Shown here: piece by piece, positions 985 through 24,034 of the stretch | How the letters are laid out: every line of letters begins with the position of its first letter | Numbering within the stretch: position 1 is the first letter of the stretch | Source: Candidatus Komeilibacteria bacterium | Lineage (GTDB): Bacteria; Patescibacteriota; Patescibacteriia; UBA1558 | Assembly: GCA_048538235.1 (NCBI GenBank) | Contig: JBLYPX010000001.1 | Span: forward strand, 594,136 to 658,135 | DNA length: 64,000 nucleotides | Direction of reading: 5' to 3' | Translations under genes and position numbers: made by a program | Notes under the pieces: generated by a model | What the model saw: only the letters and a program-made list of their open reading frames with translations | Database searches by the model: none | Told to the model about the DNA's origin: nothing

Positions 985-986
985 AA

Positions 987-5990: not shown

Positions 5991-6022
5991 AGAAAAATAT
6001 CGTTTTGTGTATAAAACGATAT
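5991..6022 (-). terminator. Rho-independent terminator candidate for the three-gene array 23890-6049
   Basis: 10-bp perfect stem atatcgtttt / aaaacgatat (plus 5997-6006 and 6013-6022) with loop gtgtat. On the minus strand it is followed by TTTTCT. It lies 27 nt downstream of the TAG (6051-6049) of ORF 6049-11970. Confidence 0.5.
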
Positions 6023-6048
6023 TCTTTAAAATTATTTTAAATATAATG

Positions 6049-9000
6049 CTATTTAAAGTGTATTAATCCTTGATTATACACCTCTTTTATTTGTTTATCT
6101 GACAAAACATAATTATATACACGTATATCGTCTAATAGGCCATGCCAAAACCTTTGATCGCCAAGCAAATAACTAGATATAACTAAACTATCACCATTTG
6201 AAACGGTACCTAAAGAACTTATATCTGCTTGGCCTTGATACGCGCCATCAATGTATAATTTCATGTAACCATCTCTATCAAATGTTGCTGAAGCATGATG
6301 CCATTGGTTGTCATCGTAATCATTGATAGAATAAACATAAACCATAGTTGTGCCGTCATCAATGGTGGCCTCAATCCTATCACTACTATCAAGTCCCATA
6401 CCCCACCCCCTTTTTGAGGTTCCGTCCCACCACCAATGCGTACCCTTATTTATTATAGTATCTCTGTCATCGCCACCTGTTGATTTAAACCATGCAGCTA
6501 AACTAAAATCCTTATCTGTATCGAAATCATATAAAGATTGATCGCCTATATTTATCCAGTCATTTCCATCAAAAGAAGCGCATCCACTCTGTTTACACAA
6601 AGAAGTATCTGTAACCCACGTAATATCTCCTGACTCTGTTCCGTTATATCCCTCACCAGAACTATCACAAACATCTTTACCATCTGAACATAAATTATCT
6701 GCACCCTCATCAAAACGCCACCAACCAATAGGTTTACCACCATTATAATCCATCATTACTTCAGCTTGTGTAATTGGTCTATTATACATTTTTATACTAT
6801 CCAATTTACCCTTCCATTCATCCCAAGCCCCATCATCTCTTAATCCTATCCTTAAAAATCCTGCACTTGTTCCAGATGGTGAAGCATAACTCTGTTGATT
6901 AACTAATCTACCATTTTTGTAAAAATATGAGGTGCCGCCGTCTAAAACCCAAGCAATATGTTGCCAATCATCATAAGTGGCGGTAGTGCCAAAGTCAATA
7001 ATAGGATTCCATACTGTACCGTTACCAGTATATCCTCTAAAACCATCTGGATTGCCTCCATTATTCTTAAATACTCCTATTTCCCATGTTACATCTTGGC
7101 CAATTATAAACGGCAGTGCGCCTGATACACTAGAGTCTAAGTATACCCAACCAGAAAAACTCACATCTCCTCCACTAGTTCCATTAGAATAAGGGTCTAA
7201 GCTGCTTGGTAAATTTACATAATCATTGCTACCATCAAAATTTAGACATCTCCCCTCATGACAAGCTTCAGCACCCTTCCATTCAGGACTACCGCTTGGC
7301 GTACCATTATACCCATTACCACTCCTATCTAAATAAACACCTCCACTATACTGATCGAAGTCCATGTCTAATACAGGAGCTGTTGAAATACTTGACCCCG
7401 TATCACGAACCCATATATTTAAAATACTCTCTCTTGTCCCACAACCCTGTCCTGTTGGAGCTCGATTGTATCCAGGTTGTAAATTATGCAATTCATTAGT
7501 TGTACCTGTTCCAAAAACTATCAAATTACCATAACCCCAATAATGTAATGCAAGTCCATTTGTGATTCCACCGCCACAAGACGTGCCAGTATAGTATGCT
7601 AATTTATTATTAGTACTTGAAGGCCACGGATCATACTTATAACCAACCGTTCCAGTTACATATAAGTCTTCATCAGTAATTCCCAAATCATTGTACTTAT
7701 GAAAATATGTATCTGACGCCCACTTAAATCTATCACTAATAAGTGCAGACAAGCCTCCAGCAGATGATCCGGTATCGTATTCATAACCATCTCCGTATAA
7801 AGGATATTTCCATTCCCACTTAGATTCTGTCCAAGAAGTTATTAAATTGTTTTGGATATTAAAAGAACCATCATAATCTGGGCCACTTACTGTACCCCAC
7901 CCAACGCCATTTGAATTATCTAAAATATCATTACGATTATCCTTATCATAAATATGTGAAACAAGGGTCCAACCACCTCCATCGGTTGTCATGTCGCAAT
8001 ACACCTCAAAGGCATCATCAATTGATCCGCCTGTTGTATCTATCCAATACACACCGTCACCTGCTTGTGAATTCTTGGCTAAAATATCTGCGCAAGATGC
8101 ACCGGGCGTTGTTTTTTCGCCAGCACTATTTGTTCTACCAAACTGACCTTTAGATTGAATAAAGTCCTGGTGAACCTCATCTGCTGTTAAAGCATAATAA
8201 TACGCCTTAACTTCATCTATTTTTCCATTAAAAAACTCTGTCCACGCAGGAGATGAACTATACCTACCACCTACTGTAAACTTACCAGAAAAATTTGAAT
8301 ATGATGTTAAAACACTTGAAGAAGCGGCTTCACTTTTTGCAAGAATACCATCTTTATATAAATACCAAGTACCGTTATCAAAAACCCAACCCAGATGATA
8401 CCATCTATCTTTCTCTAAAACAGTCGTATCTGAAAAATCATACCAAGTTGCTCCATCAGAATAATATACTAATGGATAATCATTTAATGTTTGTGTATTA
8501 AAAGCTTCTGAAACCGCTACTATCTTATGGCTACCAGATTGATCTGCTTCTCTTTTTACCCAGTAGGTCATAGACATTTCTGGAGCGCCACTTATTGCTC
8601 CAAAATCATAATAAACAGCGTCAGATGTTCCATTAAAATCCAAACAAAAGCTATTTACACACTCTGCCATTGGTTTCCAGGTTGGCGTACTTAGAGTACC
8701 ATTATATGCTGGATATGATTTATCATATGTTGTTGTACCGCCACCCTCATCAAAAGACCAGTTAATAAATGGATTTGTCTTACCATTACTCATTTCCATA
8801 GATATTTCACGTTGTGTTAAAGCGCGATCAAATATTTTAGGTTCGTCAATATAGCCATATATAGTATATTGAGCCGTACCGGTCACGCCCCCCACTTGAA
8901 CAGTTATGCCATCATCCCAAGTCCAATTAGTCAAAGTGCCACCACCATCATATATTCCATTCAAATAAAAGGAAATGCTATCACCATTTGTAACCATAGA

Positions 9001-11970
9001 TACATAAGACCATTCGTTTAATGGCAATACTGTATTAGCCGCCACAACCGCGCCACCGCCAATCATAGCTTCCATTGTTCCAGAGGCAGCAGTATCCAAA
9101 TCTCCAGCTAAATAGAAGCCGACCCCACCTGCGCCATTCCTCCTTGTAATAATACCTGATCTATAACTTGTAGTAAAAGCTGTTGGCTTAACCCATGCAG
9201 TTAACGTCATAATATCGTCAATTGCATTTAAACTAGCACTATCATTTATAGTTATAATATCTCCTGATCCATCAAATTGGAAACATCTGCCAATTTTACA
9301 GTTAATACTATCTTTATAAATAGTAGTAACAATTGTGCCATTATTTGCATTGCCTGAAATATCATACGTAGTTGCACCAGATACACTTTCAAATGGTAAA
9401 TTTAATACAACATTGTTTGTTGTACTTTCTGCGGAATTACGAACCCATAACCTTTGCTTAAAAACATTATTTACTTTATTTGTATAACCACAATTAGCCC
9501 AACACTGGTTTAGTCCAGGTGAAGCACCTGAACGCCCATAAGCATCTTGATACCAAGTAGCAGATACGCCAAATTTAGTTTGAGCAGTATTACCACTTGA
9601 CGTATACAATACTTCAGTAGCTGTATCTGAATACCAATTAACATGTGTAGATAAATTAGTTGTTGAATCTGAATCTCCAGATATTGCGCTACTATACACA
9701 ATTAAACCATCAGTACCAGCTGCTTGTGTTTGAACTCCAATTGATTTATTCAAATGTTGATTTGCCGTTCCTGTACAATATGTCATGGCGTGCTTGTTAT
9801 ACATTTTAGAAGGTCCAGTATAATTTGCATACATAAATCTCTTTGTGCCAGTAGAATCGATTAAACAATCATAATCTCCAGTTGCTATAGTATGGGTTTG
9901 GGTAAAAAAACTATCTTCATTAATAGAAAAAGTACCACTATTTAAAACTGTACTATCTGAGACTTGTACAACCTCAGCAATCATTTTAGTGTTTCCAGCA
10001 GTTATATTCATAGCATTACAAAAATTTCCTTGCTTTGATCCATCACCGTAAAGGTTTGTTGATCCCCACTTCTTAGACAATACTTTATTTCTACCAGCAG
10101 CAATTGATGGCCAATTAGTTGAATCATATGTTGCGTTGTCATAACTAAAACATAATGTCCAGCCACCGCCATCAGTTTCCATATCACAATAAGCGTCAAA
10201 AGGATCAACTCCATAACCAGGATCAATTGTATAAATACCAGATTTAGAATTTGGGTTTTGCGCTAACTGATCCATACACGAACTTGGTAATTCTGAACGA
10301 CCAACATTAAAACTGCCAGCATTCATATTATATAGTTGTAAAATTTCATCGGTTGTCAAAGCACGGTCATAAATATAAACCTCATCAATGCTGCCTTTAA
10401 AATACAAATTACTCGAACCAAGCCCAATTCTAGTGTCGACGCTAGTACTATATAAACTTGCTGGCACGCCAGAAGTTTTTTCATAGTCTAATTCACCGTT
10501 TATATATATTCTCATATATTGCGATGGTTTATAGACTGCTAAAACATGGTACCAAGTGTCTGCTGTTGGTGACCAATCCTCTCTATAAGCACCAACTAAA
10601 TTATTGCTAGCATCTGCAACATAAAAAGCAATACCCTTACTTGAAGACCAACTTCTATATGATAACAAAAATTTTCTTTGACCAGCTGTTGTACTATTAT
10701 AATTTCCTATAATAGCAGGGTCAGCATAAGCTAATGGTGATGTCTGATCTAATTTTATCCAAGTAGAGATAGAAAACTCATCTGTAATATTTAGAGATGC
10801 ATCATTGCCAACATTTACATAATTACCAACACCATCAAAACTCAAGGCGCGACCACTGGCCCCATTTTGTATCCAAGAAGCACCAGTTATAGTACCATCA
10901 TTACCATACCCCGTACTATCATAAGCGGTTGTGCCAAAACCTTCATCAAAATTCCAATAACCAACTGGACCTGGTGAATTTTCTTCTGAAACTGGGGAAC
11001 CAACACCTGGAGTGCTAGTACTAAATTTTCTAATTAATATATAATCATATGTTGCTGTCAAACCACTAGAATCTGTATCTGTAAACAATGCTATTGGACC
11101 ATCATAATTAGCATCAATTGTAGTAGATATTTGCTCTCCAAACGCACTAGCATAAACCGTTGTTCCATTGCGCCACATTTCAGAAATATACCAGGTAGAG
11201 GCAGATACAAGACCTGTAAATGAAGCTGGCTCTGTTGCCCATGAAGGATAAATAATTCCACAATTACCACCGCCTGAAGAAGAATCCAAAACATGAATGA
11301 CACCACTATTACCACCATCAAAATCAAAATAAAACCCTGAATCAAAATCTCCATTAGTATCTTCTTTCATCTTGGTTCTCACAATCAAACCATCATTTGA
11401 AAAACTTTGATTAGATATAAGAGGTTCATAATCTGAACCGGTTATAGATATTTCACTACTTCCGTAGGTGTAACCACTGCCGCTATACGTCCACTTAACT
11501 GTATCTAATGAATCAAAATCATCAAAAAACTCAAATGTTTCATCTCCATTTTGTTCATCACTGGCAGACGAATTACCATAATACATATAGATAGTAGTAC
11601 CAGTTGTTGGAATAGAAGGTATTTTAATCCAAGCATTTACTGAAGATATAGTACTATCTTCTATCCAGTATGGTAATACTCTATGGTTTATGTCTGTAAA
11701 GCGTAAATCCGCTAAATTTGCTTGTAATTTAGAAGGAGATAAAGAGCTTAAATCTACATTTTGTAGTATTTCTACTTGAAAGTCTGTAAGTTCTGAACCT
11801 GAGCCATTTGTTACTGTTATTGATTGTCTGTAGGACCATGTATCGTTCCACCAAGTAGCTTCTACTGTTTTTGGTTTATTAAATATATATATTATTCCTA
11901 TAACTATAATAATAGCTATTAATACTATACTAGATAAATAATATATTTTATTTTTTAAATACTTTTTCAT
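6049..11970 (-). CDS. giant secreted surface protein (1973 aa): signal peptide, DUF2341-like domain, LamG_3/ConA-like lectin repeats and two fibrinogen-related-domain-like modules
   Basis: N-terminus MKKYLKNKIYYLSSIVLIAIIIVIGIIYIFNKPKTVEA|TWWNDTWSYRQSITVTN...TTIYMYYGN (AXA-type cleavage site VEA; DUF2341 consensus). LamG_3 units (PVGYWNFDEGFGTTAYDSTGYGNDGT...IDEVYIYDRALTTDEILQLYN). FReD-like SSCMDQLAQNPNSKSGIYTIDPGYGVDPFDAYCDMETDGGGWTL (10140-10295) and TPGASCADILAKNSQAGDGVYWIDTTGGSIDDAFEVYCDMTTDGGGWTL (7960-8115). C-terminus DDIRVYNYVLSDKQIKEVYNQGLIHFK is shared with the next two genes. Confidence 0.92.
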   Translation of the reverse strand: MKKYLKNKIYYLSSIVLIAIIIVIGIIYIFNKPKTVEATWWNDTWSYRQSITVTNGSGSELTDFQVEILQNVDLSSLSPSKLQANLADLRFTDINHRVLPYWIEDSTISSVNAWIKIPSIPTTGTTIYMYYGNSSASDEQNGDETFEFFDDFDSLDTVKWTYSGSGYTYGSSEISITGSDYEPLISNQSFSNDGLIVRTKMKEDTNGDFDSGFYFDFDGGNSGVIHVLDSSSGGGNCGIIYPSWATEPASFTGLVSASTWYISEMWRNGTTVYASAFGEQISTTIDANYDGPIALFTDTDSSGLTATYDYILIRKFSTSTPGVGSPVSEENSPGPVGYWNFDEGFGTTAYDSTGYGNDGTITGASWIQNGASGRALSFDGVGNYVNVGNDASLNITDEFSISTWIKLDQTSPLAYADPAIIGNYNSTTAGQRKFLLSYRSWSSSKGIAFYVADASNNLVGAYREDWSPTADTWYHVLAVYKPSQYMRIYINGELDYEKTSGVPASLYSTSVDTRIGLGSSNLYFKGSIDEVYIYDRALTTDEILQLYNMNAGSFNVGRSELPSSCMDQLAQNPNSKSGIYTIDPGYGVDPFDAYCDMETDGGGWTLCFSYDNATYDSTNWPSIAAGRNKVLSKKWGSTNLYGDGSKQGNFCNAMNITAGNTKMIAEVVQVSDSTVLNSGTFSINEDSFFTQTHTIATGDYDCLIDSTGTKRFMYANYTGPSKMYNKHAMTYCTGTANQHLNKSIGVQTQAAGTDGLIVYSSAISGDSDSTTNLSTHVNWYSDTATEVLYTSSGNTAQTKFGVSATWYQDAYGRSGASPGLNQCWANCGYTNKVNNVFKQRLWVRNSAESTTNNVVLNLPFESVSGATTYDISGNANNGTIVTTIYKDSINCKIGRCFQFDGSGDIITINDSASLNAIDDIMTLTAWVKPTAFTTSYRSGIITRRNGAGGVGFYLAGDLDTAASGTMEAMIGGGAVVAANTVLPLNEWSYVSMVTNGDSISFYLNGIYDGGGTLTNWTWDDGITVQVGGVTGTAQYTIYGYIDEPKIFDRALTQREISMEMSNGKTNPFINWSFDEGGGTTTYDKSYPAYNGTLSTPTWKPMAECVNSFCLDFNGTSDAVYYDFGAISGAPEMSMTYWVKREADQSGSHKIVAVSEAFNTQTLNDYPLVYYSDGATWYDFSDTTVLEKDRWYHLGWVFDNGTWYLYKDGILAKSEAASSSVLTSYSNFSGKFTVGGRYSSSPAWTEFFNGKIDEVKAYYYALTADEVHQDFIQSKGQFGRTNSAGEKTTPGASCADILAKNSQAGDGVYWIDTTGGSIDDAFEVYCDMTTDGGGWTLVSHIYDKDNRNDILDNSNGVGWGTVSGPDYDGSFNIQNNLITSWTESKWEWKYPLYGDGYEYDTGSSAGGLSALISDRFKWASDTYFHKYNDLGITDEDLYVTGTVGYKYDPWPSSTNNKLAYYTGTSCGGGITNGLALHYWGYGNLIVFGTGTTNELHNLQPGYNRAPTGQGCGTRESILNIWVRDTGSSISTAPVLDMDFDQYSGGVYLDRSGNGYNGTPSGSPEWKGAEACHEGRCLNFDGSNDYVNLPSSLDPYSNGTSGGDVSFSGWVYLDSSVSGALPFIIGQDVTWEIGVFKNNGGNPDGFRGYTGNGTVWNPIIDFGTTATYDDWQHIAWVLDGGTSYFYKNGRLVNQQSYASPSGTSAGFLRIGLRDDGAWDEWKGKLDSIKMYNRPITQAEVMMDYNGGKPIGWWRFDEGADNLCSDGKDVCDSSGEGYNGTESGDITWVTDTSLCKQSGCASFDGNDWINIGDQSLYDFDTDKDFSLAAWFKSTGGDDRDTIINKGTHWWWDGTSKRGWGMGLDSSDRIEATIDDGTTMVYVYSINDYDDNQWHHASATFDRDGYMKLYIDGAYQGQADISSLGTVSNGDSLVISSYLLGDQRFWHGLLDDIRVYNYVLSDKQIKEVYNQGLIHFK
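10140..10295 (-). other. fibrinogen-related-domain (FReD)-like module core in ORF 6049-11970 (copy 1); further cores at 7960-8115, 15900-16060, 13780-13945, 19540-19700
   Basis: Hand-verified translations: SSCMDQLAQNPNSKSGIYTIDPGYGVDPFDAYCDMETDGGGWTL and four paralogous segments. The pattern C..L.......SG.Y.I.P.......F.VYCDM.TDGGGWT matches the N-terminal half of fibrinogen C-terminal globular domains (fibrinogen beta/gamma, ficolins, angiopoietins). Confidence 0.6.
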
Positions 11971-12060
11971 TATTATTTAAAGTGTATTAATCCTTGATTA
12001 TATACTTCTTTTACTTGCTTATCTGTAAGGGCGTAGTTGTAGATACGGATGTCGTCCAGT
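11575..12060. repeat. ~485-bp direct repeat spanning a gene junction (3' end of ORF 11973-17723 + 5' 395 nt of ORF 6049-11970)
   Basis: About 99% identical to 17328-17815 (only 3 mismatches noticed in the first 400 nt). Repeat spacing is 5753 bp. Confidence 0.85.
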
Positions 12061-15000
12061 TTGCCGTTTAAATACCTATTACCTCCTCCATCATCTCCTA
12101 TAGTTAATGCACTAGTCGATGAAACACTACCAGATGTTGAACTAGTGCCTTCAAGCACTCCATCTATATATATCTTTATTGTATTACCTTCCCTAACACC
12201 AGTAACGTGGTGCCAAGCACTATTTATTGTTGAAGTAGATGCAACATTATAACCATCATCATTAACAACAAAATACGCTTTATTTGTTGCTTGGGTATAC
12301 AGACCATAAAACGAAGTTGGGGGGCCAGTTAAAACTGCTTTACTTAAAAATGCATTCCACCCACTACCATTGTTTATATATCCGTCATAGTAAACCCAAG
12401 TTGCTACAGAAAAATCCTCGCTACCAAAATCTAAAATACCAGAAGACGGATCTGTAATTGTTAATTTATCTCCCGTACCATCAAAATCCATACACCAGCC
12501 CTGCTTACACGAAGAGGTATCTGTAATCCAAGTAGGATCACCGCTAATTGTTCCATTATTTCCCTCTTCTGTATTATCGCAAGCATCTTTACCATCTGAA
12601 CATAAATTATCTACTCCCTCATCTAATCTCCACCAACCAACCGGTTTACCACCATTATATAATTGGGCAACCTCCGCCCTTGTTAAAGCTCTATTATATA
12701 CTTTCATTTCATCTACCACGCCCCTAAAACCATAATCGTTATCACTAATAAAAAAGTTAGTCCAGGCAGCTTGTCCTACAGAAGACGAGGTTGTGCCAGC
12801 ACTAATAACAGTATTATCTATACGTAAAACTGTATTAGTAATATCTGATTGCGCGCTACCAGGAATATATAACTCAAGAAAATGCCAACTACCGTCCATA
12901 TAAGCAGAGCTGTTAGCCCAATACCTATAATTTTCACCGGCCAAATATAACAATGGCCACTCTTGCTGATAGTCAAAATAAAATCCACCTTGAGCATCAC
13001 CATTTCTAAAATTAAACAAAGCTTGCTTATCTGAATAACTAGAATTAAACCAGGCAACTACTGTAGTGGTTCCATTATCTATAGAGCCTCCCCAATTTAT
13101 ATAATCATTACTATCAAACTCTACACAACGTCCAGATTTGCAGTTTACAGTAGATTTCCATTGTGGATCACCGTTAGGCGTTCCGGTTATATTATTACCA
13201 CTTCTTTCCAAATATACTCCTCCTACATATTGATCTAAATCTAAATCAAGGAGAGGAGCTGTGTTGTTTGGAGTAACAGAAGAATTCCTTCCAAATAAAT
13301 ATCCAAAATTATTATCTGTACTAGTGCCAGTATCTGCATTCCCATTCCATGACAACTTAGATCCAGACTTATAAATTCTTCGAGGAATATTTCCAGTAGT
13401 AGCAGAGTAAGCTCCACAAGCAGATGCTTCTCCTAACCACAGCTCAAATCCATTAGTAGCATCTCCATATCTCCACGATGAGCACCAAGTGTTTACATAC
13501 ACATTCGTTGCACCAGTTTTCGCGTTTGGCGGCCAAGATTGTCCAGATAAAGTTATTTGTATTTGAGCACCCGGATCTTTATCCATAATATTAGCTGTAT
13601 TTAATTTACCAGTCCAGAATTCATTAAAAGTATAATCACTAGCCATAACTTTTTGCATATACATATAGTTACTACCTGTTCCACTAGTAATTAGATTTGT
13701 TGTATTAGCACCATTAGTTGATATATCTCCATACGTAGTATAAGGGAGCCAAGTAGAATTAACATATGCAAACTCCAAACCAAGCAATGTCCAGCCACCA
13801 CCATCATGTTCCATATCACAATAAACCTCCAAACTATCAGATAATGATCCTCCACTTGGATCAACCCAATATCTGCCGCTGGCAGCTTTTGGATTTTTAT
13901 GAAGAATATCCATACAACTAGCACCAGGTGTTGTTTTATCACCCACTGAATTAGTTCTCCCAAACTGTCCAGCAGATTGTATATATTCTTGCTTAATTTC
14001 ATCAGCTGTTAAAGCATATGGATAAACTTTTAACTCATCAATACTACCATCCCAAAACCTATCTGTACTTAAACCCTGAACATTACCAATTAAAAAACCA
14101 CTCGCTAAATTATCATAACCCAAAGCTCCTGATGTATTTGTTCCAGTGTTTTTTAACTCTCCATTAACATAAATCTTCTGAGTAGAGCCGTCATATGTTC
14201 CAAAAACATGCTGCCATTCTCCAATAGCTGGCATGACTTCACTAGATAATTGTTGATATCCACCCGCACTATTACCTACACTAAAAGCCCAGTCTGAACC
14301 AGTAATCCCTAGCCAATAGCCATCATCACTTGTATTTCCATAACCAGCAATAAATTGGGTTGATTTTATTGTGTTTATCTTAGCCCATGCACCAATCGAA
14401 ACATAATTAGGACGAAGGGTGGATACTGCACCGACAACAGCGTAATCCCCATTTGGAGCTGCCGCTCCATCAAAAGTCATACAACTACCGCTCATACAGT
14501 TTTCAGGCGTATTCCATGTTGGACAATTAGCTGCGCCAGGACAAGAACCATACAAATTTGCGTCATTACTAAACCCAGATTTATCATAAGCGATATCTCC
14601 ACCACCTTCATCAAAGCCAATATCTAAAACTGGCTGATGTTTGCCACCATTCATTTCCATCATTATTTCACGTTGAGTAAGTGCACGCTCAAAAACTTTA
14701 ACCTCATCTATGTTGCCGTGCCACCAATAACTTCCTCCCGTAGGATTATACGCACCTATTGCTAAGTTTTGATTAAAAGTATATGACGAATATGTCTTAC
14801 TAAATCTGTAAATACCATCAATATATAAATTTGCATAAGAGCCATCAAAAACAATGGCCATGTGATGCCAATTTGTATCAGCGGCTACTTGGACAGATGG
14901 ACTCGTCCAGGCACCTGTATATATACCCATATCCCAATAACCATCAACGTGTCCAAAATAAGCTCTTTTGTTATCAGTTGAAGTGCCTTGAGCCATATAC

Positions 15001-17723
15001 ATTCTACTTTCAGATGGAAAATTTGACTTCACCCAAGCCATATACGTACTCAAAGTTGTTGTAGGGTTCAAACCGTTGCCATAAGTCACACTCATATAAT
15101 CATTACCATCGAAAGCATAGCACCTACCAACTTTACAATTTGCAGATGATTTTGGCGTAGCACCAGTTACTGCAGCATTTTTTGTATTTCCCGAAACATC
15201 ATAAGTAGTTGAACCAGATACATTTTCAAAAGGAAGATCTAAAGCAATGCCAGATTTTGTTGATAAATTACCTTCTCGAGTCCACATTTGTATCCAAAAC
15301 TTTCTGTCACCAGCACCTGTAGACTCCCAACCCCATGCACCCTCACCATTAGTCGATAGTGGCTGGCAGGCAGGACTAAACCACTGAGTATCATCCTCTT
15401 CAATGGCTCCACCAGAATCTAAAATAGGAATGCCAAAATGTTCTGTATTATCGTTAGAAAATGTATACATCATATAGTCACCGCAACCAGAAGTAGATGG
15501 GTTAGAATTATAAGGTAAAAAAGATATATAATTATCATCATCACCGCCACAACCATTGTTCCACTCCCAAATATCGCAAGGACCCTTACCACGACCTGGC
15601 ACAGCCGTGCCAGTTGTTGGATTAATTCCAGTCGTAAGTGGTCCATAACTAGGGTTTTGAATATATAAATCACGCCAATTCGTATAACCTGAAAAAATTC
15701 CATTAAAATAGCTTGCATAAGCATCTGAAACATCAAACAAAGCATAACTATTCCTCTGTACCACAAGCATAAGATCGTCCGCTGGAACATCAATATATGC
15801 TTGTGAAAAATAGTCCTCTCCAATAGTTGCCTGACTAATATCCTTAAATTGAGCAGGTGGGTTATTAAAAGTTGTACGCAAAGCAATATTGGTAGCGTCT
15901 GTATTTGTAGCGACATGTACAAGTGTCCAACCACCACCATCTGTTTCCATATCACAATAAACATCAAATGGATCAACGCCTGGGCCAGGGTCAATTGTAT
16001 ATACTCCAGAAGATGAAGCTGGATTCTGAGATAGCTGATCAAGACAAGATGTTGGCAATGTTGAACGACCAGTAGAAAAACTACCCGCATTCATATTGTA
16101 GAGCTGCAATATCTCATTCGTACTGAGAGCTCTATCATAAACATACACCTCATCAATAAGACTGTTTGCATAATGACTTGCGCCAGTATATGCACCAATA
16201 TATGCATTGTATGTACTAGTATCAACACTTGCGAATCCATATGCCTTTGGCGAACCATATGCTCTTCCATCAACATACATAACACCCGTACCATTATCGA
16301 AAGTAAAAGCTAAATGATACCACTGATTAGCATTTGGAGACCAATTTTCATATAAGGAAGCCCTAGTTGAACCGTTACCAAGTTCTACCATCAAATTTGA
16401 TGGTTCAGAACCCGTTCTATTATCAAAGGCCAACCAATATAATAAATTTGCAGATTCACTGCCTTTCTCAATAACGGTATTAATGCGACTATCCAAAGTG
16501 TGGTATTTTACCCAAGCAGATAATGTAAATTCTGAAGTTAAAGCCAGACTAGTATCATTTCCTAAATTAACATTAGAATTGCCGGGAAAATCTAACGCTC
16601 TGCCCTTAACACCATTTTGAACCCAAGCAGCACTTCCTCCTAAAGTTCCATCATTACCATAACCAGTACTATCATATGCAGTTGTTCCAAAACCTTCATT
16701 AAAATTCCAATAACCAACTGGGCCTGGTGAATTTTCTTCAGTGCTGGGTGCTCCTATCACAGGTGCAGTAGAAGCGAATTTTCTAATCAATATATAATCA
16801 TAAGATGCTGTATAGCTCGGATTGTCAGTATCTGTAAAAAGAGCAATCGGCCCAGTATAATTAGCATCGATTGTAGAAGATATTTGCTCGCCAAAAGCAC
16901 TGGCATATACCGTAGTTCCATTTCGCCACATTTCTGTTATTTCCCATGTATCAATACCTATTAATCCTGTATACGATGCTGGTTCAGTAGCCCAACTTGG
17001 ATAAATAATTCCACAATTTCCACCCCCCGCAGAAGAGTCAAGAACATGAATAATTCCTGTATTACTTGCATCATAATCTAAATAATAACCTGAATCAAAA
17101 TCCCCACTTGAATTCTGTTTAATCTTTGCTCTAACTATTAAACCATCATTAGAAAATGTCTGAGCAGATATAAGTGGCTCATAATCAGAACCTGTTATTG
17201 TGATGAGTCCACTGGCAAATGAATAACCAGAGCCGCTATATATCCACTTGCCCGTATCTACACCATCAAAATCATCAAAGAACTCAAAAGTGTGATCACC
17301 GCTTTGATCGTCTGTTGCATTCGCATTCCCATAATACATATAGATAGTAGTACCAGTTGTTGGAATAGAAGGTATTTTAATCCAAGCATTTACTGAAGAT
17401 ATAGTACTATCTTCTATCCAGTATGGTAAAACTCTATGATTTATGTCTGTAAAGCGTAAATCTGCTAAATTTGCTTGTAATTTAGAAGGAGATAAAGAGC
17501 TTAAATCTACATTTTGTAGTATTTCTACTTGAAAGTCTGTAAGTTCTGAACCTGAGCCATTTGTTACTGTTATTGATTGTCTGTAGGACCATGTATCGTT
17601 CCACCAAGTAGCTTCTACTGTTTTTGGTTTATTAAATATATATATTATTCCTATAACTATAATAATAGCTATTAATACTATACTAGATAAATAATATATT
17701 TTATTTTTTAAATACTTTTTCAT
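11973..17723 (-). CDS. giant secreted surface protein (1916 aa), paralogue of 6049-11970: signal peptide, DUF2341-like, LamG_3 repeats, two fibrinogen-related-domain-like modules
   Basis: The first ~130 aa are identical to ORF 6049-11970 (about 99% DNA identity). FReD-like TSCLDQLSQNPASSSGVYTIDPGPGVDPFDVYCDMETDGGGWTL (15900-16060) and TPGASCMDILHKNPKAASGRYWVDPSGGSLSDSLEVYCDMEHDGGGWTL (13780-13945). C-terminal LamG ends ...DDIRIYNYALTDKQVKEVYNQGLIHFK. Its start codon is 2 nt after the stop of the upstream gene. Confidence 0.92.
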   Translation of the reverse strand: MKKYLKNKIYYLSSIVLIAIIIVIGIIYIFNKPKTVEATWWNDTWSYRQSITVTNGSGSELTDFQVEILQNVDLSSLSPSKLQANLADLRFTDINHRVLPYWIEDSTISSVNAWIKIPSIPTTGTTIYMYYGNANATDDQSGDHTFEFFDDFDGVDTGKWIYSGSGYSFASGLITITGSDYEPLISAQTFSNDGLIVRAKIKQNSSGDFDSGYYLDYDASNTGIIHVLDSSAGGGNCGIIYPSWATEPASYTGLIGIDTWEITEMWRNGTTVYASAFGEQISSTIDANYTGPIALFTDTDNPSYTASYDYILIRKFASTAPVIGAPSTEENSPGPVGYWNFNEGFGTTAYDSTGYGNDGTLGGSAAWVQNGVKGRALDFPGNSNVNLGNDTSLALTSEFTLSAWVKYHTLDSRINTVIEKGSESANLLYWLAFDNRTGSEPSNLMVELGNGSTRASLYENWSPNANQWYHLAFTFDNGTGVMYVDGRAYGSPKAYGFASVDTSTYNAYIGAYTGASHYANSLIDEVYVYDRALSTNEILQLYNMNAGSFSTGRSTLPTSCLDQLSQNPASSSGVYTIDPGPGVDPFDVYCDMETDGGGWTLVHVATNTDATNIALRTTFNNPPAQFKDISQATIGEDYFSQAYIDVPADDLMLVVQRNSYALFDVSDAYASYFNGIFSGYTNWRDLYIQNPSYGPLTTGINPTTGTAVPGRGKGPCDIWEWNNGCGGDDDNYISFLPYNSNPSTSGCGDYMMYTFSNDNTEHFGIPILDSGGAIEEDDTQWFSPACQPLSTNGEGAWGWESTGAGDRKFWIQMWTREGNLSTKSGIALDLPFENVSGSTTYDVSGNTKNAAVTGATPKSSANCKVGRCYAFDGNDYMSVTYGNGLNPTTTLSTYMAWVKSNFPSESRMYMAQGTSTDNKRAYFGHVDGYWDMGIYTGAWTSPSVQVAADTNWHHMAIVFDGSYANLYIDGIYRFSKTYSSYTFNQNLAIGAYNPTGGSYWWHGNIDEVKVFERALTQREIMMEMNGGKHQPVLDIGFDEGGGDIAYDKSGFSNDANLYGSCPGAANCPTWNTPENCMSGSCMTFDGAAAPNGDYAVVGAVSTLRPNYVSIGAWAKINTIKSTQFIAGYGNTSDDGYWLGITGSDWAFSVGNSAGGYQQLSSEVMPAIGEWQHVFGTYDGSTQKIYVNGELKNTGTNTSGALGYDNLASGFLIGNVQGLSTDRFWDGSIDELKVYPYALTADEIKQEYIQSAGQFGRTNSVGDKTTPGASCMDILHKNPKAASGRYWVDPSGGSLSDSLEVYCDMEHDGGGWTLLGLEFAYVNSTWLPYTTYGDISTNGANTTNLITSGTGSNYMYMQKVMASDYTFNEFWTGKLNTANIMDKDPGAQIQITLSGQSWPPNAKTGATNVYVNTWCSSWRYGDATNGFELWLGEASACGAYSATTGNIPRRIYKSGSKLSWNGNADTGTSTDNNFGYLFGRNSSVTPNNTAPLLDLDLDQYVGGVYLERSGNNITGTPNGDPQWKSTVNCKSGRCVEFDSNDYINWGGSIDNGTTTVVAWFNSSYSDKQALFNFRNGDAQGGFYFDYQQEWPLLYLAGENYRYWANSSAYMDGSWHFLELYIPGSAQSDITNTVLRIDNTVISAGTTSSSVGQAAWTNFFISDNDYGFRGVVDEMKVYNRALTRAEVAQLYNGGKPVGWWRLDEGVDNLCSDGKDACDNTEEGNNGTISGDPTWITDTSSCKQGWCMDFDGTGDKLTITDPSSGILDFGSEDFSVATWVYYDGYINNGSGWNAFLSKAVLTGPPTSFYGLYTQATNKAYFVVNDDGYNVASTSTINSAWHHVTGVREGNTIKIYIDGVLEGTSSTSGSVSSTSALTIGDDGGGNRYLNGKLDDIRIYNYALTDKQVKEVYNQGLIHFK

Positions 17724-17815
17724 TATTATTTAAAGTGTATTAATCCTTGATTATATACTTCTTTTACTTGCTTATCTGTAAGGGCGTAGTTGTAGATACG
17801 GATGTCGTCCATTAA
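17328..17815. repeat. second copy of the junction direct repeat (3' end of ORF 17726-23890 + 5' end of ORF 11973-17723)
   Basis: See 11575-12060. A third partial copy is at 23480-23770. Confidence 0.85.
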
Positions 17816-20800
17816 TCCTTGATAAAATTCATTTGCAGTATTACTACCTCTACCAATCCAAGCAGACTCATCTAACGTTGCTGGTGTATAACTATGAGCA
17901 AAATCCTCTATAAACTCACCGTTAACATAAAATGCTATTCTGTTAGATTCCCTTTTCATAATAATATGCTGCCAAGAAGTGGTCATATCATAAGTTGTTA
18001 AATGGGTTTGCCAAGTTGAGCCATCGCCTGTCCCGCCAGCTAATTTACCTGTATTACTCTGTATACCAAGATGTCCGTTACTTGATCCGAATTGTCCGAG
18101 ATAAACGAATCCCTGCCAATAATTATGAACAGGGTCTGTTGGCTTTACCCATAAAGCTATTGTAAAGTCATTACCGCCCAAACTTAATATACTATCTTGC
18201 CCAATATCTACGACATCGTCTGTTCTGTCAAAGCTTAAACACCCTCCCTGTTTACAAAGTGAAGTATCAGTCACCCAAGTAGGACCACCGCTAAACGTTC
18301 CATTATTACTGTTCCCAGAACTATCGCAAGCATCTTTTCCATCTGAGCATAAATTATCTGCACCCTCTCCCAATCTCCACCAACCAACTGGTTGACCACC
18401 ATTATAATTAAAAGACACCTCAGCCTGCGTTAAAGCTCTATTATATATTTTTACTTCATCTATGATCCCATCAAATTCATAATCAGTATCTGTTCTATAA
18501 AGCCCTATAACAATATCGCTCGTATCGCTATTACAATTTCCATCTGTTAAATTAGTACCACTTGTTGAATCTAACTTACCGTTAACATACAATTCATCAT
18601 CTGCTGATTCTTTATAAATACCAACCACATGATACCAATTGCCAGCAACCAAACTTGTTGTCCCGTCAAAATTACTACAACTATGGCTGCCAAAATTTAA
18701 TTTATTCTCTTGTAAATTCAAACCCCAACCATTATCTGAATACTTTCCCATAATCCCATGCCTATAACCAGATACTGAATTAGGTTTTATCCAAGCTTCT
18801 AATGTATAATCTCCAGCAAAATCAAAAACCGTATTAGCAGGAATAATTACCCAGTCATTTGTGGTGTCTATATTTAAACACCTACCTTCTTTACAATTAA
18901 CTGAAGTTTCCCATATTGGATCACTGCTAATTGAACTAGTATTATGCCCATTACCACTTCTATCTAAATATGACCCGCCAACAAATTTATCAAAATCCAT
19001 ATCTAAAATCGGGCCAGTACTAATAGTACTTCCTAATCCTCCCATCCACCAATTAGTAGTAGAGCCACTTGATGCTGTGCATTCAAAATTGGGGTTAGTA
19101 TAACCATAATACCCCCAGTTATCTTCGGAACTTACAGACCCTGCATCAGAGTCAAGCGAACCAGCACCGCAAGCTAAATTATTAACACTTGAATCTAAGT
19201 GAGTGTGTACACTACCAGAAGGATAACCCCACCACTTTGCCTGACAATTCTGACAACTATATCCACGCACATTTACATCCACCATAACCCTACAACTATT
19301 GGTGGTAGTAAAGGCCATAATATCTGTATCTGATTTATTAGATATGGCATAATCTGTGGTTGGGTCTTGATTCATTTCACAAGTTGACCTCCACTGAGTA
19401 GAAACACTATTAAGATTATCCATCCTAGATTTAGATAGTCTGTAGTTATCTATCTGTGTCGGATCATCACTATTTATTGGTACGTCACTCTGGTAAGAAA
19501 TAAAACTAGCTTTATTAGCCAATGAAAATGATTCAATTAAAGTCCATCCTCCACCATTAGTAGTCATGTCGCAAAACACTTTAAAAGAATCGCTTAAAGA
19601 GCCGCCCGTAGGGTCTATATAGTAATAGCCATCACCAGCCTTAGGATTCTTAGACAATATATCTGCACAAGAAGCACCTGGCGTTGTTTTATCACCTACA
19701 GAATTAGTTGTACCAAATTGCCCCGAAGACTTTGTATACTCTTCCATTAAATCATCATAGGTTAATGCATAATTAAACATTTTAACCTCGTCAATTTTAC
19801 CATTAAATGTATTTCCAGCTCCCCCTTGGTAACCGCCTACTCCAAAATTATACCCATTAGAAATACTACCAAGATTTGTAATATCCTCAGTATCTACAGC
19901 TACCATATCTTCATACAATGTCATGATGCCTGTATCTCTATCTAAAATAACAGCTACATGATGCCATTTGCCATCAATTAATGACTCGTCTCCATCATAA
20001 ACTTTAAAAGGAGAACCAGCTCCATCATTTACAAAAAAACCGAAACTACTTGAATACCCAGAATAAGAGGCGGTTAGCCAATAACCTACAGTATCACCAA
20101 TTGTTACATCATTGCTTTTATCTACCACCGTACCCCTAGCAGTTGTACCAACATCTATGCTAGCCCAAGCAGAAATTGTTAAACTACCAGAACCAAAATC
20201 TAAATCATTTCCAGAACTGGCTTCTGAAATTATAATAGTGTCATCATTATTAAAATCCAAACAGCTACCACTTATACAATGCTCTGATGGCATCCAAGAA
20301 GCTGCTATTATAGTTCCATTATTGCTTAAAAAAGAATCGTCATAAGCAATAGAACCAGCTGCACCATCTAGACTTAAAGACAATATAGGATATTGTTTTC
20401 CACCACCCGTTTCCATCGCAATCTCACGATCAGAAAGTACTCTGTTATATACCTTTATTTCATCTAGGTAACCATTAATTGTTGCGGTTGGTCCATTGTT
20501 TTGCCCTCCAATCATTACATTGGTTGAACCATTAGTGACTATGCCATTATATGCATCTGTTGTACTTTGATATTTACCGTTTACATAAAACTTAATTAAA
20601 TCTCCATCATAGGTGGCTGCTAAATGATACCACTGACCAGCCTGCAAACCAGCACCCGATGAATAATACGCCCTATAACCACTAAAACCCTCATTAAAAG
20701 CAAGGTGTATTTCATCGCTATCTCCAGTATACTGACCAAACCACCATTCCATTGTGCCACTATTATTCCATTTTGTAATCATTGCATTTGTGTCTAAATC

Positions 20801-23800
20801 GTTCATATATATCCAGCCCATCCAAGTGCCTCTGTCCGACACCAAATCATAATCTCCTAAAATCATATAATCACCCCCATCAAAAGAGTAACATTTACCA
20901 ACTTTACAATTAACAGCTGGCTTAGAAGTAGCTCCTGTTACTGTCGCATTATACTCATTGCCAGATCTATCATAGGTAGTAGTTCCAGAAACGTTATCGA
21001 AATCTAAATCTAAAACTGGATCTCCTTTATAGGCATTAACATCTACACTACCCTTCAACCTGTGTGCATCTAATCTAATTCTACCCTCACCGCCATCTCC
21101 ACCATAATGATTTGAACCGTCTGCACTAGCACCACCGGCTACAGACAAACTATTAGATTCAACATCTAATAGTGAAGCTCTTAATAATATCGCTCCACCT
21201 GAACCACCGCCAGCGCCCCACAGACCATCATCATTGGCATAAAAGAAAGCATCCTGACCATCAGCATTAATAGCTCCATCTATTTTAATACTATCTGCCT
21301 CAATATACACCATGCCACCACCAGAGCCACCATGTGGTTTACCGCCATTACAATGCCCGCCGCCGCCGCCTGAACCTGGATATATTTTATTTATTGGATT
21401 ATCTCCATACAATTCACCAGGAAGTGAAGGCTTAGATGCGTCATACACTTGAGCAGCCTGACCAGATGTTCTATAACTACCACCCGAACCGTTAACATAA
21501 GTTGTACCGCCACCATCTTTAGTTACTGGTACCGCACCGCTATAGAATCCCTGCACGCCACGGCCAGTATATCCTTCTCCGCACTCACCATCGCATGATG
21601 GATCAGAATATCCATCAGTACCGTTATTTCTACCACCCCTATAACCATCACCTTCTACATCTATGCTTCCTCCAGATTTAATTTCAACCTCACCTGTAGA
21701 TCTGAAAATAACAATTCCACCTTTATACCCATCCCATGTAGTAGCCGTAATAGATCCTCCACTCTCTACACTAACACTTGTATATTGGGGTATACGTATC
21801 ATTTGAGCAGACTCAGCTGCTGTATTATTAAATGTTCCTGAATAGTATGAATTAGTTATAGCTTTGTTTAATGTAATATCATTACTAGAAACTGAGCTAA
21901 TCTTTGCAAATTCATATTGTCCAGACAACCCATTAGCTGAATCCTGCGTTTGCCATATCATAACCTCATCACCAGCTACAAAACCAGCACTACTACCAAC
22001 AGTAATAACAGTTTGACCAGCTGCTTCATTGGCTGCTAATTGAGAATACGTATTTACAACTGTATTTGCACTAGTAACAGTCAGAGCTCCGTCTGACCCA
22101 TCTCCTCCATTTACAGAGCCGGTATAGCTAGTCTCTACACCCATAGAAAAACTTGCAGCATTTGTATTATATAATTGAAGAACTTCGTCTTTTGACAAAG
22201 CACGATCATAGATCATAACCTCATCTATTCTGCCATCAAAATGACGGAAAGGCGTTTCACTCGAACCATTGTCATAATCTATACCAATTCCAACTGGCAT
22301 GGTGCTAATATGTAAAGAGCTAGGAATACTAGTAGAATTTGTATTAGCTAAAACACCATCTATATATAATTTAATAAAACTACCAGCATCATAAACACCC
22401 ACTATATGATGCCAAGTACCAGCAGTTGCTGCGCCATCTGCCGAGGAAACAGTTGAATATGAACTACCATTACCAGAAACTAAAAAGTCTATTCGACCTG
22501 TTGCCCACCAGTTAGCAAATAATAACCATGAAAAATTAGTTACACCCCCATCGCCCCACTTTGAAACAATTGTTGATTTATCATTATATACATCAAAATA
22601 TGCCCAAGCAGATACGGTCATATCACCAGTAATATTTAAAGCTTGACCATTGTTTATAGCTACATAATCAGTAGTACCATTAAAATCTAAAGCCCTACTA
22701 CTCACACCATTTTGCGACCAAACAGCGCCAGAAACTGTACCGTTATTACTATAGCCGGTACTATCATAGGCAGTCGTTCCGAATCCCTCATTAAAATTCC
22801 AATAACCGACAGGGCCTGGTGTGTTTTCCTCCGTTGTAGGTGCTGCTGCTACCGGCTCTGTCGCTGCAGTTTTTGCTACAAAATACCAATCGGTTACAGG
22901 ATAAGTTGTAGCTGAATCTGAGTCACCATGCAAAAAAGCATACAAATCACCAGAAATAGCTTCAGTCCAAGTTCTGTTATATGTGTCTCCATTTAAATTT
23001 CCTGTACCCGTAGCACTAAAAAACTTAGAAGTAATCACGGTCCAAGTGCCAGATAAATATGTTGTTCCGTTAACGGTTGGCGTGCTTACTGGATTACCCA
23101 AATCATACTCGTACACCCTATTATTCTGACCAGATTCATTATCTCCTGAATGATGCACCCAAGCGTGATCAACATTACTATCAAAAAACTGATTTGTACT
23201 TGCAGTACTTTGAAAACCAACAAAATCATCTATATCTGAAGCACTTCCAACTTTATATGCCCTATGTACAATCTTTAAATTGGGTAAATTAAAGGTTCTG
23301 TTTGTAACAAAACTTAAATTATTATTAGTAAACTTAACAACTGATTCTCCGTCATAAGTTGTCATAGTATATGCTCCTGTAGTATTAACAACCACATTCC
23401 ATTTCCCAGCATCAAAACTATCAAAATCATCAAAAAACTCAAAAGTATTATCTCCACTCTGTTCATCACTAGCACTCGCATTACCATAATACATATAGAT
23501 AGTAGTACCAGTTGTTGGAATAGAAGGTATTTTAATCCAAGCATTTACTGAAGATATAGTACTATCTTCTATCCAGTATGGTAAAACTCTATGATTTATG
23601 TCTGTAAAGCGTAAATCTGCTAAATTTGCTTGTAATTTAGAAGGAGATAAAGAGCTTAAATCTACATTTTGTAGTATTTCTACTTGAAAGTCTGTAAGTT
23701 CTCCTCCTGAGCCATTTGTTACTGTTATTGATTGTCTGTAGGACCATGTATCGTTCCACCAAGTAGCTTCTGCTGTTTGGGGTTTGTTTATCAGATAAAC

Positions 23801-23890
23801 TATGCCAATTACAATGATCAGAGCTATAGTTAGAACACTAACAGGATAGTACCATTGAATTTCTTTTATTTTCCTTAAAATTTTATGCAT
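17726..23890 (-). CDS. giant secreted surface protein (2054 aa), paralogue: signal peptide, DUF2341-like, LamG_3 repeats, glycine-rich region, one fibrinogen-related-domain-like module
   Basis: N-terminus MHKILRKIKEIQWYYPVSVLTIALIIVIGIVYLINKPQTAEA|TWWNDTWSYRQ, then DUF2341-like sequence identical to the two downstream paralogues. Gly-rich stretch GSGGGGGHCNGGKPHGGSGGGMVYIEADSIKIDGAINADG...GAGGGSGGAILL (21150-21950). FReD-like TPGASCADILSKNPKAGDGYYYIDPTGGSLSDSFKVFCDMTTNGGGWTL (19540-19700). Same C-terminal 27 aa as the ORFs at 6049 and 11973. Confidence 0.92.
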   Translation of the reverse strand: MHKILRKIKEIQWYYPVSVLTIALIIVIGIVYLINKPQTAEATWWNDTWSYRQSITVTNGSGGELTDFQVEILQNVDLSSLSPSKLQANLADLRFTDINHRVLPYWIEDSTISSVNAWIKIPSIPTTGTTIYMYYGNASASDEQSGDNTFEFFDDFDSFDAGKWNVVVNTTGAYTMTTYDGESVVKFTNNNLSFVTNRTFNLPNLKIVHRAYKVGSASDIDDFVGFQSTASTNQFFDSNVDHAWVHHSGDNESGQNNRVYEYDLGNPVSTPTVNGTTYLSGTWTVITSKFFSATGTGNLNGDTYNRTWTEAISGDLYAFLHGDSDSATTYPVTDWYFVAKTAATEPVAAAPTTEENTPGPVGYWNFNEGFGTTAYDSTGYSNNGTVSGAVWSQNGVSSRALDFNGTTDYVAINNGQALNITGDMTVSAWAYFDVYNDKSTIVSKWGDGGVTNFSWLLFANWWATGRIDFLVSGNGSSYSTVSSADGAATAGTWHHIVGVYDAGSFIKLYIDGVLANTNSTSIPSSLHISTMPVGIGIDYDNGSSETPFRHFDGRIDEVMIYDRALSKDEVLQLYNTNAASFSMGVETSYTGSVNGGDGSDGALTVTSANTVVNTYSQLAANEAAGQTVITVGSSAGFVAGDEVMIWQTQDSANGLSGQYEFAKISSVSSNDITLNKAITNSYYSGTFNNTAAESAQMIRIPQYTSVSVESGGSITATTWDGYKGGIVIFRSTGEVEIKSGGSIDVEGDGYRGGRNNGTDGYSDPSCDGECGEGYTGRGVQGFYSGAVPVTKDGGGTTYVNGSGGSYRTSGQAAQVYDASKPSLPGELYGDNPINKIYPGSGGGGGHCNGGKPHGGSGGGMVYIEADSIKIDGAINADGQDAFFYANDDGLWGAGGGSGGAILLRASLLDVESNSLSVAGGASADGSNHYGGDGGEGRIRLDAHRLKGSVDVNAYKGDPVLDLDFDNVSGTTTYDRSGNEYNATVTGATSKPAVNCKVGKCYSFDGGDYMILGDYDLVSDRGTWMGWIYMNDLDTNAMITKWNNSGTMEWWFGQYTGDSDEIHLAFNEGFSGYRAYYSSGAGLQAGQWYHLAATYDGDLIKFYVNGKYQSTTDAYNGIVTNGSTNVMIGGQNNGPTATINGYLDEIKVYNRVLSDREIAMETGGGKQYPILSLSLDGAAGSIAYDDSFLSNNGTIIAASWMPSEHCISGSCLDFNNDDTIIISEASSGNDLDFGSGSLTISAWASIDVGTTARGTVVDKSNDVTIGDTVGYWLTASYSGYSSSFGFFVNDGAGSPFKVYDGDESLIDGKWHHVAVILDRDTGIMTLYEDMVAVDTEDITNLGSISNGYNFGVGGYQGGAGNTFNGKIDEVKMFNYALTYDDLMEEYTKSSGQFGTTNSVGDKTTPGASCADILSKNPKAGDGYYYIDPTGGSLSDSFKVFCDMTTNGGGWTLIESFSLANKASFISYQSDVPINSDDPTQIDNYRLSKSRMDNLNSVSTQWRSTCEMNQDPTTDYAISNKSDTDIMAFTTTNSCRVMVDVNVRGYSCQNCQAKWWGYPSGSVHTHLDSSVNNLACGAGSLDSDAGSVSSEDNWGYYGYTNPNFECTASSGSTTNWWMGGLGSTISTGPILDMDFDKFVGGSYLDRSGNGHNTSSISSDPIWETSVNCKEGRCLNIDTTNDWVIIPANTVFDFAGDYTLEAWIKPNSVSGYRHGIMGKYSDNGWGLNLQENKLNFGSHSCSNFDGTTSLVAGNWYHVVGIYKESADDELYVNGKLDSTSGTNLTDGNCNSDTSDIVIGLYRTDTDYEFDGIIDEVKIYNRALTQAEVSFNYNGGQPVGWWRLGEGADNLCSDGKDACDSSGNSNNGTFSGGPTWVTDTSLCKQGGCLSFDRTDDVVDIGQDSILSLGGNDFTIALWVKPTDPVHNYWQGFVYLGQFGSSNGHLGIQSNTGKLAGGTGDGSTWQTHLTTYDMTTSWQHIIMKRESNRIAFYVNGEFIEDFAHSYTPATLDESAWIGRGSNTANEFYQGLMDDIRIYNYALTDKQVKEVYNQGLIHFK
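23480..23770. repeat. third (partial) copy of the DUF2341-encoding repeat (5' region of ORF 17726-23890)
   Basis: Near-identical to 11575-11865 and 17328-17618. It diverges at the signal-peptide-coding end. Confidence 0.8.
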
Positions 23891-23975
23891 TTATATAATA
23901 AAAAAGCCACGTCAAAAAAACCTTTAACATGGCCCTCTATTTTTAATTTTACGTTGTATATTATAACAGAAAAAT
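23891..23975 (-). promoter_or_regulatory. second copy of the conserved upstream cassette: TATAAT (plus 23960-23965, minus strand) followed by leader hairpin (arms 23906-23916 / 23923-23933) and U6 tract (plus A-run 23900-23905) ending 9 nt before the ATG at 23890
   Basis: Direct reading. About 87% identical to 5913-5996. The hairpin arms are kept complementary via G-U wobbles. Confidence 0.4.
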
Positions 23976-23989
23976 ATGATTTTGTGTAA

Positions 23990-24014
23990 TAAAAAACTAT
24001 TCACAATGAATAGT
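23990..24014 (-). terminator. Rho-independent terminator candidate for the operon ending at 24035
   Basis: 8-bp stem actattca / tgaatagt (plus 23996-24003 and 24007-24014) with loop caa. On the minus strand it is followed by T5-6 (plus A-run 23991-23995). It starts 20 nt downstream of the TAA (24037-24035) of ORF 24035-28141. Confidence 0.55.
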
Positions 24015-24034
24015 TAAAATTTAGGTTTTTTTAT

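Follow-up and report, generated by a model that had tools for sequence, protein, structure and literature searches.

We analyzed a window of 64,000 nucleotides (nt) from contig JBLYPX010000001.1 of a Candidatus Komeilibacteria bacterium, focusing on gC, gB and gA, three consecutive genes whose junctions carry nearly identical sequence. The 64-kb window has a G+C content of 37% and is filled almost completely with very large open reading frames (ORFs) on the minus strand, a series of tightly coupled surface-protein genes on one strand that runs, from right to left, in the order 9171-amino-acid (aa) ORF, 157-aa ORF, gF, gE, gD, gC, gB, gA, g0 and a truncated gene. The ORFs that had been predicted for gA, gB and gC were confirmed, all of them on the minus strand (Table 1). 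The gC/gB and gB/gA junctions both read TAA-TA-ATG, giving the 2-nt spacing that had been claimed; the second spacer quoted for it, TAGTTATG, belongs to the junction at 984-987, where g0 meets the next gene, a place outside the range then under discussion. There, the g0 stop codon and the start of the truncated gene are 2 nt apart (TAG-TT-ATG), and gA is separated from g0 by 136 nt.

Table 1. Coordinates of genes, repeat tracts and leader regions in the window
Feature	Position	Strand	Description
gF	32107-35637	minus	signal-anchored LamG protein
gE	28141-32106	minus	signal-anchored LamG protein
gD	24035-28141	minus	signal-anchored LamG protein
Leader of the gC-gB-gA unit	23891-24034	minus	terminator-like hairpin of the preceding gene; promoter-like site 23988-23960 (extended -10); 17-bp hairpin and U-run 23938-23901 just before the ATG
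gC	17726-23890	minus	2054 aa; plan as in gA; heads the three-gene unit; own diverged signal peptide
Partial tract in gC	23484-23771	minus	288 nt, +108 to +395 in gA numbering; mature N-terminal domain without signal peptide
gB	11973-17723	minus	1916 aa; plan as in gA; body between two 483-nt direct repeats
Junction tract J_BC	17329-17811	minus	last 86 nt of gC, spacer TA, first 395 nt of gB
gA	6049-11970	minus	1973 aa; signal peptide, DUF2341, five LamG_3, short fibrinogen-C/COLFI-like and Toxin_R_bind_N matches; last in the three-gene unit
Junction tract J_AB	11576-12058	minus	last 86 nt of gB including stop (11973-12058), TA (11971-11972), first 395 nt of gA (11576-11970)
Older identity layer in gA	10862-11575	minus	+396 to +1109; ~76-80% identical to gB 16612-17328; gC alike only to ~+480
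Leader-like block upstream of g0	5913-6048	minus	similar to the leader of the gC-gB-gA unit
g0	987-5912	minus	hydrophobic N terminus and DUF2341 match
Truncated fifth DUF2341 gene	1-984	minus	start at 984, runs off the window; hydrophobic N terminus

Using an ungapped comparison at an offset of 5753 nt, we found that the two junctions are direct repeats of 483 nt, J_AB and J_BC, which are identical at 480 of 483 positions (99.4%) and share a longest identical run of 348 nt. The three mismatches, at 11677, 11686 and 11710, are all synonymous, with gB carrying A, T and T and gA carrying G, C and A at the respective sites. In each full copy, the TA spacer stands between the last 86 nt of one gene and the first 395 nt of the next, the latter encoding, in J_AB, the signal peptide and the N-terminal domain up to a YMYYGN motif. 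The partial copy in gC matches gB at 285 of 288 positions and ends at the same downstream breakpoint as the two other copies. The repeats had originally been placed at 11575-12060 and 17328-17815, with a partial copy at 23480-23770; they proved to be real, and their limits were refined to those given in Table 1. When the three genes were aligned at the DNA level to map the breakpoints, a sharp edge common to all of them appeared at +395. The near-identity of about 99% reported for the first ~395 nt of all three genes held for gA and gB, but gC joins only from +108, after a different signal peptide. Likewise, the identical or near-identical ends of ~90 nt are a property of gB and gC, whose last 86 nt are 100% identical, whereas the end of gA is only 81% identical to both.

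The sole difference between gB and gC within the 288-nt tract is a block of three adjacent bases (23703-23705 in gC and 17548-17550 in gB), TTC versus AGG, which gives GGT-TCA versus GGA-GGA and changes Ser to Gly. From its sequence, this block looks like a multi-nucleotide change or a micro-conversion rather than a set of independent point mutations.

Past the tract, identity falls abruptly to ~78% at +396 on the gene-body side and to a random level on the side of the upstream gene. Since the flanking background identity is only ~78%, a chance origin of the 348-nt identical run is excluded. Exact matches of at least 30 nt among gA, gB and gC are confined to the tracts (with runs of 348 and 219 nt), and the longest one elsewhere is 29 nt. 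Further, the tract edge does not coincide with any Pfam domain boundary, as residue 132, where the tract ends just past the family-wide YMYYGN motif, lies within the DUF2341 match (residues 86-161).

Synonymous and nonsynonymous divergence (dS and dN) were then determined by the Nei-Gojobori method over codon ranges of paralogue pairs. Between gA and gB, dS was 0.00 for codons 1-35 and 0.065 for codons 36-132, rising to 1.5 for codons 133-200 and 1.0 for codons 201-370, while the gB/gC pair showed a dS of 0.03 for codons 36-132 and values of 1.9-2.2 on both sides of this range. The N-terminal domain is not intrinsically frozen, because g0 and gA differ in the same codons 36-132 with a dS of 1.15 and a dN of 0.33. 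Protein-level constraint was rejected as the cause of the identity, because purifying selection cannot erase synonymous differences.

To follow the relationship along the genes, identity was read outward from the junction. From -86 to +395, gA and gB are 99.4% identical; within this segment, -86 to +107 is equal only in these two, and +108 to +395 is identical or nearly so in gA, gB and gC. Between +396 and ~+480, all three genes share ~80% identity, and just past the breakpoint (+396 to ~+450) gA is nearer to gC than to gB. From +480 to +1109, an identity of ~76% is retained by gA and gB only, gC being unrelated at the DNA level. Over positions 1-1109, tract included, blastn aligned gA and gB at 83.6% identity, and dS in the layer past the tract is 1.0-1.5. 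This mosaic of nearest relatives, together with the stepwise decay of identity, points to a series of exchanges that overlapped, took place at different times and were anchored at the 5' junction. What we observed at these genes fits gene conversion: an abrupt tract of near-identity, a far lower dS inside it than in the adjacent sequence and a nearest paralogue that switches along the gene. The original suggestion that gene conversion holds the junction constant is well supported by the contrast between a dS near zero inside and saturation outside, by the sharp common breakpoints and by the mosaic of relatives.

Two other sources of the identity were evaluated. A single recent tandem duplication of the whole unit was rejected, the identity being limited to 483 nt of the 5753-nt unit. 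RNA structure as the reason for the identity was also rejected, since the junction showed no structure beyond that of shuffled controls (z = -0.26). Nor was a promoter-like site present on the coding strand at the junction, and with no excess RNA structure and no such site, a nucleotide-level functional constraint over 483 nt is unlikely.

The gene bodies present a different picture. Whole-protein identity is 47% for gA/gB, 37% for gA/gC and 38% for gB/gC, and global alignment of the bodies revealed conserved framework islands (50-70% identity) alternating with segments of 10-30%. A LamG profile constructed from the window sequences detected five LamG_3 domains in each of gA, gB and gC, at collinear positions. 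In Pfam, the three proteins gave similar sets of matches, including short fibrinogen-C/COLFI-like ones, and both DUF2341 (PF10102; 77-82 bits versus a cut-off of 23.4) and Laminin_G_3 (PF13385; 344-390 bits in 5-6 stretches) scored above the gathering score. Gly-rich modules were restricted to the truncated gene. The ~5-kb middles are therefore strongly diverged, as had been stated, but do not differ in the number and type of LamG, fibrinogen-related (FReD) and Gly-rich modules, for each holds five collinear LamG_3 domains and lacks Gly-rich ones. Judged from their sequences, gA, gB and gC are diverged collinear paralogues, not differently assembled cassettes.

Two further ideas about the middles found no support. 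Cassette shuffling is not supported, given the collinear five-LamG plan and the 29-nt limit on exact matches outside the tracts; because no such match reaches 30 nt, the bodies offer no internal substrate for homologous shuffling, and homologous exchange can only move, delete or duplicate whole gene bodies. Diversification of the binding middle by selection was not apparent; dN/dS for gA/gB is ~0.15 outside the tract, in the reliably alignable codons 133-370. The same ratio, found with saturated dS directly outside the tract, led us to reject targeted hypermutation of the middle.

The products of gA, gB and gC are giant, secreted or membrane-anchored, LamG-rich surface proteins and presumably adhesins. 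It is reasonable to infer from their layout an adhesin role combined with a common N-terminal docking or export module. No sortase motif is present in these genes; at the N terminus, no G/FxxxE-type prepilin motif was recognized, as judged by eye only. A profile of the N terminus had no match among PDB sequences, and an AlphaFold2 model of residues 1-200 reached a mean predicted local distance difference test score of 59.7, which is low confidence.

Upstream of gC and of g0, we noted a common leader block of ~105 nt, consisting of TACACA-17-TATAAT with an upstream TG, followed by a 16- to 17-bp, G-U-containing hairpin and a U-run that stops ~10 nt short of the ATG. Relative to shuffled sequences, the hairpins have z values of -4.0 (gC) and -2.9 (g0). 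The two promoter-like sites score 10 of 12, which is among the best in 19.5 kb, and are alone at that score in having an extended -10 TG. Given these sites upstream of gC and g0, the array reads as two transcription units, gC-gB-gA and g0 with the following gene. A mini-ORF after GAGGG (MLKVFLTWLF... or MLKLFLTWLFL) overlaps the leader hairpin, and this terminator-like hairpin, lying within a 5' leader, is possibly an attenuator. The whole window, leader block included, gave no Rfam match at gathering thresholds, and the leader motif was not found upstream of the DUF2341 genes of relatives.

The remaining genes of the window are packed as closely. The genes gD and gE overlap by 1 base (28141), and gE and gF abut without a spacer (32106/32107). 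In the truncated gene, poly-Gly-rich segments (GGGGGGARHAGGGGGGG...) follow the N-terminal domain at the place where the other genes hold LamG-type sequence. The 9171-aa ORF (36157-63672, minus strand) is internally repetitive at the DNA level, with identities of up to 98% (for example, 55040-55339 versus 60752-61051 and 61307-61606 versus 62243-62542). A match to Peptidase_S74 (endosialidase intramolecular chaperone) lies in the middle of the protein, at ~41743-41910, and a weak one to an endosialidase tail spike at ~57799-57897, which suggests a fibre-like, possibly self-cleaving surface protein. The C-terminal 1790 aa of this protein are 49% identical to a protein on a syntenic Komeilibacteria contig, L003, which carries the giant-protein C terminus, a gD-like gene and a DUF2341-LamG gene.

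Relatives of the three genes proved to be scarce. An exact-protein look-up with gB returned no record, a protein search with the N-terminal 143 aa yielded only 6 matches (best identity, 61%), and no metagenome contig contained an exact match to a 32-mer of the tract. We then examined six fetched loci with two or more DUF2341 genes for recurrence of the pattern and found 5' tracts with diverged bodies in three of these six other tandem loci, with 94-97% identity over 150-340 nt. Two of the three belong to Komeilibacteria (L005, 97% over 152 nt; L006, 94% over ~165 nt together with a 95% intergenic stretch) and one to Shapirobacteria (L010, 94% over 340 nt), and no such 5' tract was present in the closest relative, L082. 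These 5' tracts are thus recurrent yet sporadic, as expected of chance conversion. Across the family, the N-terminal WWNDxWxYRQ and the C-terminal DDxRIYNYALTxxQxKExYN motifs are conserved in many lineages.

Other DUF2341 loci showed features of their own. A metagenome contig of 6582 nt, L117, carries one DUF2341-LamG gene (902-6490) and has identical ends of 125 nt (1-125 and 6458-6582), which cover the 3' end of the gene and downstream sequence; the likely cause of these ends is a tandem array whose identical junctions stopped the assembler. In L084, a related metagenome contig, a 168-nt stretch with 98% identity (1460-1627 and 6541-6708) lies directly upstream of two large ORFs and is a repeated leader or promoter region, not a coding tract. 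In L004 (26-5506 and 9977-20420), a 947-kb contig of a metagenome-assembled genome, genes encoding a T2SSE ATPase, a T2SSF platform protein and a prepilin peptidase (Peptidase_A24) lie 2-9 kb upstream of a tandem DUF2341-LamG pair with 0-nt spacing. DUF2341 proteins in archaeal type IV pilus loci have been proposed as tip adhesins, a hypothesis rather than a tested function (PMC4858521), and the L004 gene order fits the proposed link between DUF2341 and a type IV pilus-like system. No pilus genes occur in the 64-kb window.

Taken together, the sequence evidence makes it quite probable, in our view, that gC, gB and gA are old collinear tandem paralogues in which repeated gene conversion keeps the junction island near-identical. 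The three genes would be transcribed as one unit from the promoter upstream of gC, and non-reciprocal homologous recombination, recurring between copies, would homogenize a single island that runs from the 3' end of the upstream gene across the 2-nt spacer and the signal peptide into the N-terminal domain as far as YMYYGN. Such an island may sustain itself, as strand exchange needs long exact matches and would now find them only within the island, the flanks being presumably too diverged for exchange to spread into them. The sharp +395 breakpoint common to all copies is accounted for because exact matches survive only inside the island, and gC lacks the part before +108 because what precedes it is a leader instead of the end of another gene. 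The island may formerly have been longer and have eroded since, its remains being the ~80% layer to +480 in all three genes and the ~76% layer to +1109 in gA and gB. In addition, whole bodies could be deleted or duplicated in register by RecA-type exchange between the 483-nt repeats (spacing, 5.75 kb) or between the 288-nt repeats (6.2 and 11.9 kb), and the body of gB or of gA could thereby come to lie immediately after the promoter and signal peptide of gC. The earlier remark that unequal crossing-over keeps the register is correct but not special to this array, being true of any homologous exchange.

Several points weigh against repeated conversion. No chimeric or copy-number variant was seen, the junction copies are known from the assembled contig, and no recombination genes lie within the window. 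Profile-guided genome and metagenome scans retrieved distant relatives only, with at most 65% protein identity, and the recurrence elsewhere concerns few loci, with tracts that are shorter and less identical. Besides, the exact common breakpoint at +395 could also have arisen in a single founding event, or through selective loss of converted variants.

Import of diverged bodies would leave much the same picture, with identical ends, sharp breakpoints and strongly diverged middles: a recently multiplied resident gene would have had its middles replaced from other strains via the constant ends, with the N- and C-terminal motifs conserved family-wide in many lineages supplying the homology arms. 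However, this history requires a recent triplication plus at least two independent imports, leaves the nested older layers (+396 to +480 and +480 to +1109) and the likeness of gA to gC past the breakpoint unexplained and finds no donor-like sequence in any collection searched; we regard it as quite unlikely. Assembly or polishing, through merged paralogous reads or joined strain variants, could also have made the repeat or its near-identity, for a 483-nt repeat is longer than short reads and k-mers and often breaks or mis-joins metagenome assemblies, and L117, with the same 125 nt at both ends, shows that such junctions disturb assembly. Yet polishing cannot raise ~78% identity to 100% with a base-sharp edge, and the copies were resolved separately, with three mismatches between the full copies and the three-base block in gC. 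Moreover, the repeat has two entries and two exits, so that the assembled path is the only linear one using three distinct bodies, all ORFs are intact and in frame across the junctions, and the same type of 5' tract occurs in independent assemblies of other lineages. An artefact is accordingly very unlikely.

The junction repeats might instead be selected modules of programmed variation that switch the promoter-adjacent adhesin body or the copy number. A complete gene body does lie between in-register direct repeats, the promoter-proximal gC could, through its 288-nt copy, have its leader and signal peptide joined to the body of gB or gA, and the pattern recurs in other lineages. Against this, neither a recombinase nor inverted or silent 5'-truncated cassettes occur in the window, each copy has its own start codon and signal peptide, no variant was observed, and the tracts are sporadic in relatives and absent in L082, which chance conversion fits better; most improbable is our assessment here. 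A broader version, in which the junction module is a selected, in-register cassette border serving DUF2341 arrays as a recombinase-free copy-number or expression switch for host range, strikes us as unlikely. If it were true, episymbiotic bacteria of the candidate phyla radiation (CPR) could quickly delete, duplicate or promoter-swap whole 6-kb host-binding adhesin bodies.

Established variation systems were also considered. We scanned all coding-strand ORFs of at least 100 aa, except two embedded in gB, against Pfam, and the scanned ORFs were LamG proteins, one giant protein and one small protein without a family; plus-strand ORFs are antisense inside the giant gene. None of the scanned ORFs matched a reverse transcriptase, and a diversity-generating retroelement also fails on the number and kind of differences (only 3 per 483 nt, not adenine-specific) and on the position of the tract, which is N-terminal and spans a gene junction. 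A site-specific inversion or shufflon switch was rejected, with all genes on one strand and no recombinase family found in the window. An expression site with silent cassettes of the pilE/pilS or vlsE type was likewise rejected, as gA, gB and gC are each a complete ORF with an ATG and a signal peptide.

The case is a known kind of process (compare babA/babB) in a new example, a Komeilibacteria-like CPR organism, and its specific features are the tandem 2-nt spacing with a tract across stop and start, the gene size and the CPR host. Our literature search on gene conversion in Patescibacteria surface proteins found nothing specific. Attachment to host cells is the way of life of CPR bacteria (Patescibacteria), and the foremost candidates for recognizing the host are their giant LamG-rich surface proteins. 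The locus suggests arrays that evolve with a homogenized export and N-terminal module and with free-running binding bodies, so that a constant part, possibly for docking, can be told from a variable part. The predicted instability of the array could underlie host switching, and junction repeats of this kind are a likely cause of broken or wrongly circularized CPR metagenome contigs.

Among known systems, the tandem emm-like genes (mrp-emm-enn) of Streptococcus pyogenes have conserved signal-peptide and C-terminal ends, variable middles and known recombination between neighbours, along with separate intergenic regions and LPXTG anchors. The Komeilibacteria genes differ from them in lacking a sortase motif, in a length of ~6 kb and in a homogenized unit that bridges the junction. 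In the Mycoplasma vsp, vsa and vlp loci, the signal-peptide 5' region is near-identical in all members and the remainder differs, and variation proceeds through site-specific recombinases and inversions, or through promoter switching, with one expression site. In contrast, the genes described here have one direction, all copies are complete and the 64 kb contain no recombinase. DUF2341 has been noted in large Patescibacteria proteins (PMC11809585); like these, the products of our genes combine an N-terminal hydrophobic segment with a DUF2341 match above the Pfam threshold and are very large predicted surface proteins.

Of the well-studied systems, the nearest in kind is the bab family of Helicobacter pylori, where babA, babB and babC share an N-terminal homology region, a variable middle and a highly similar C-terminal region, and where gene conversion in the 5' region (~60-240 bp from the start) and in the 3' region has given chimeric genes documented in isolates (PMC4552749). 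Constant ends, a variable middle and conversion at 5' and 3' sides are alike in both. The bab genes, however, occupy dispersed loci, encode outer-membrane proteins and combine conversion with CT-repeat phase variation, whereas no simple-sequence switch was found here and the genes stand in tandem at 2-nt spacing, with one tract bridging each stop codon and the next start.

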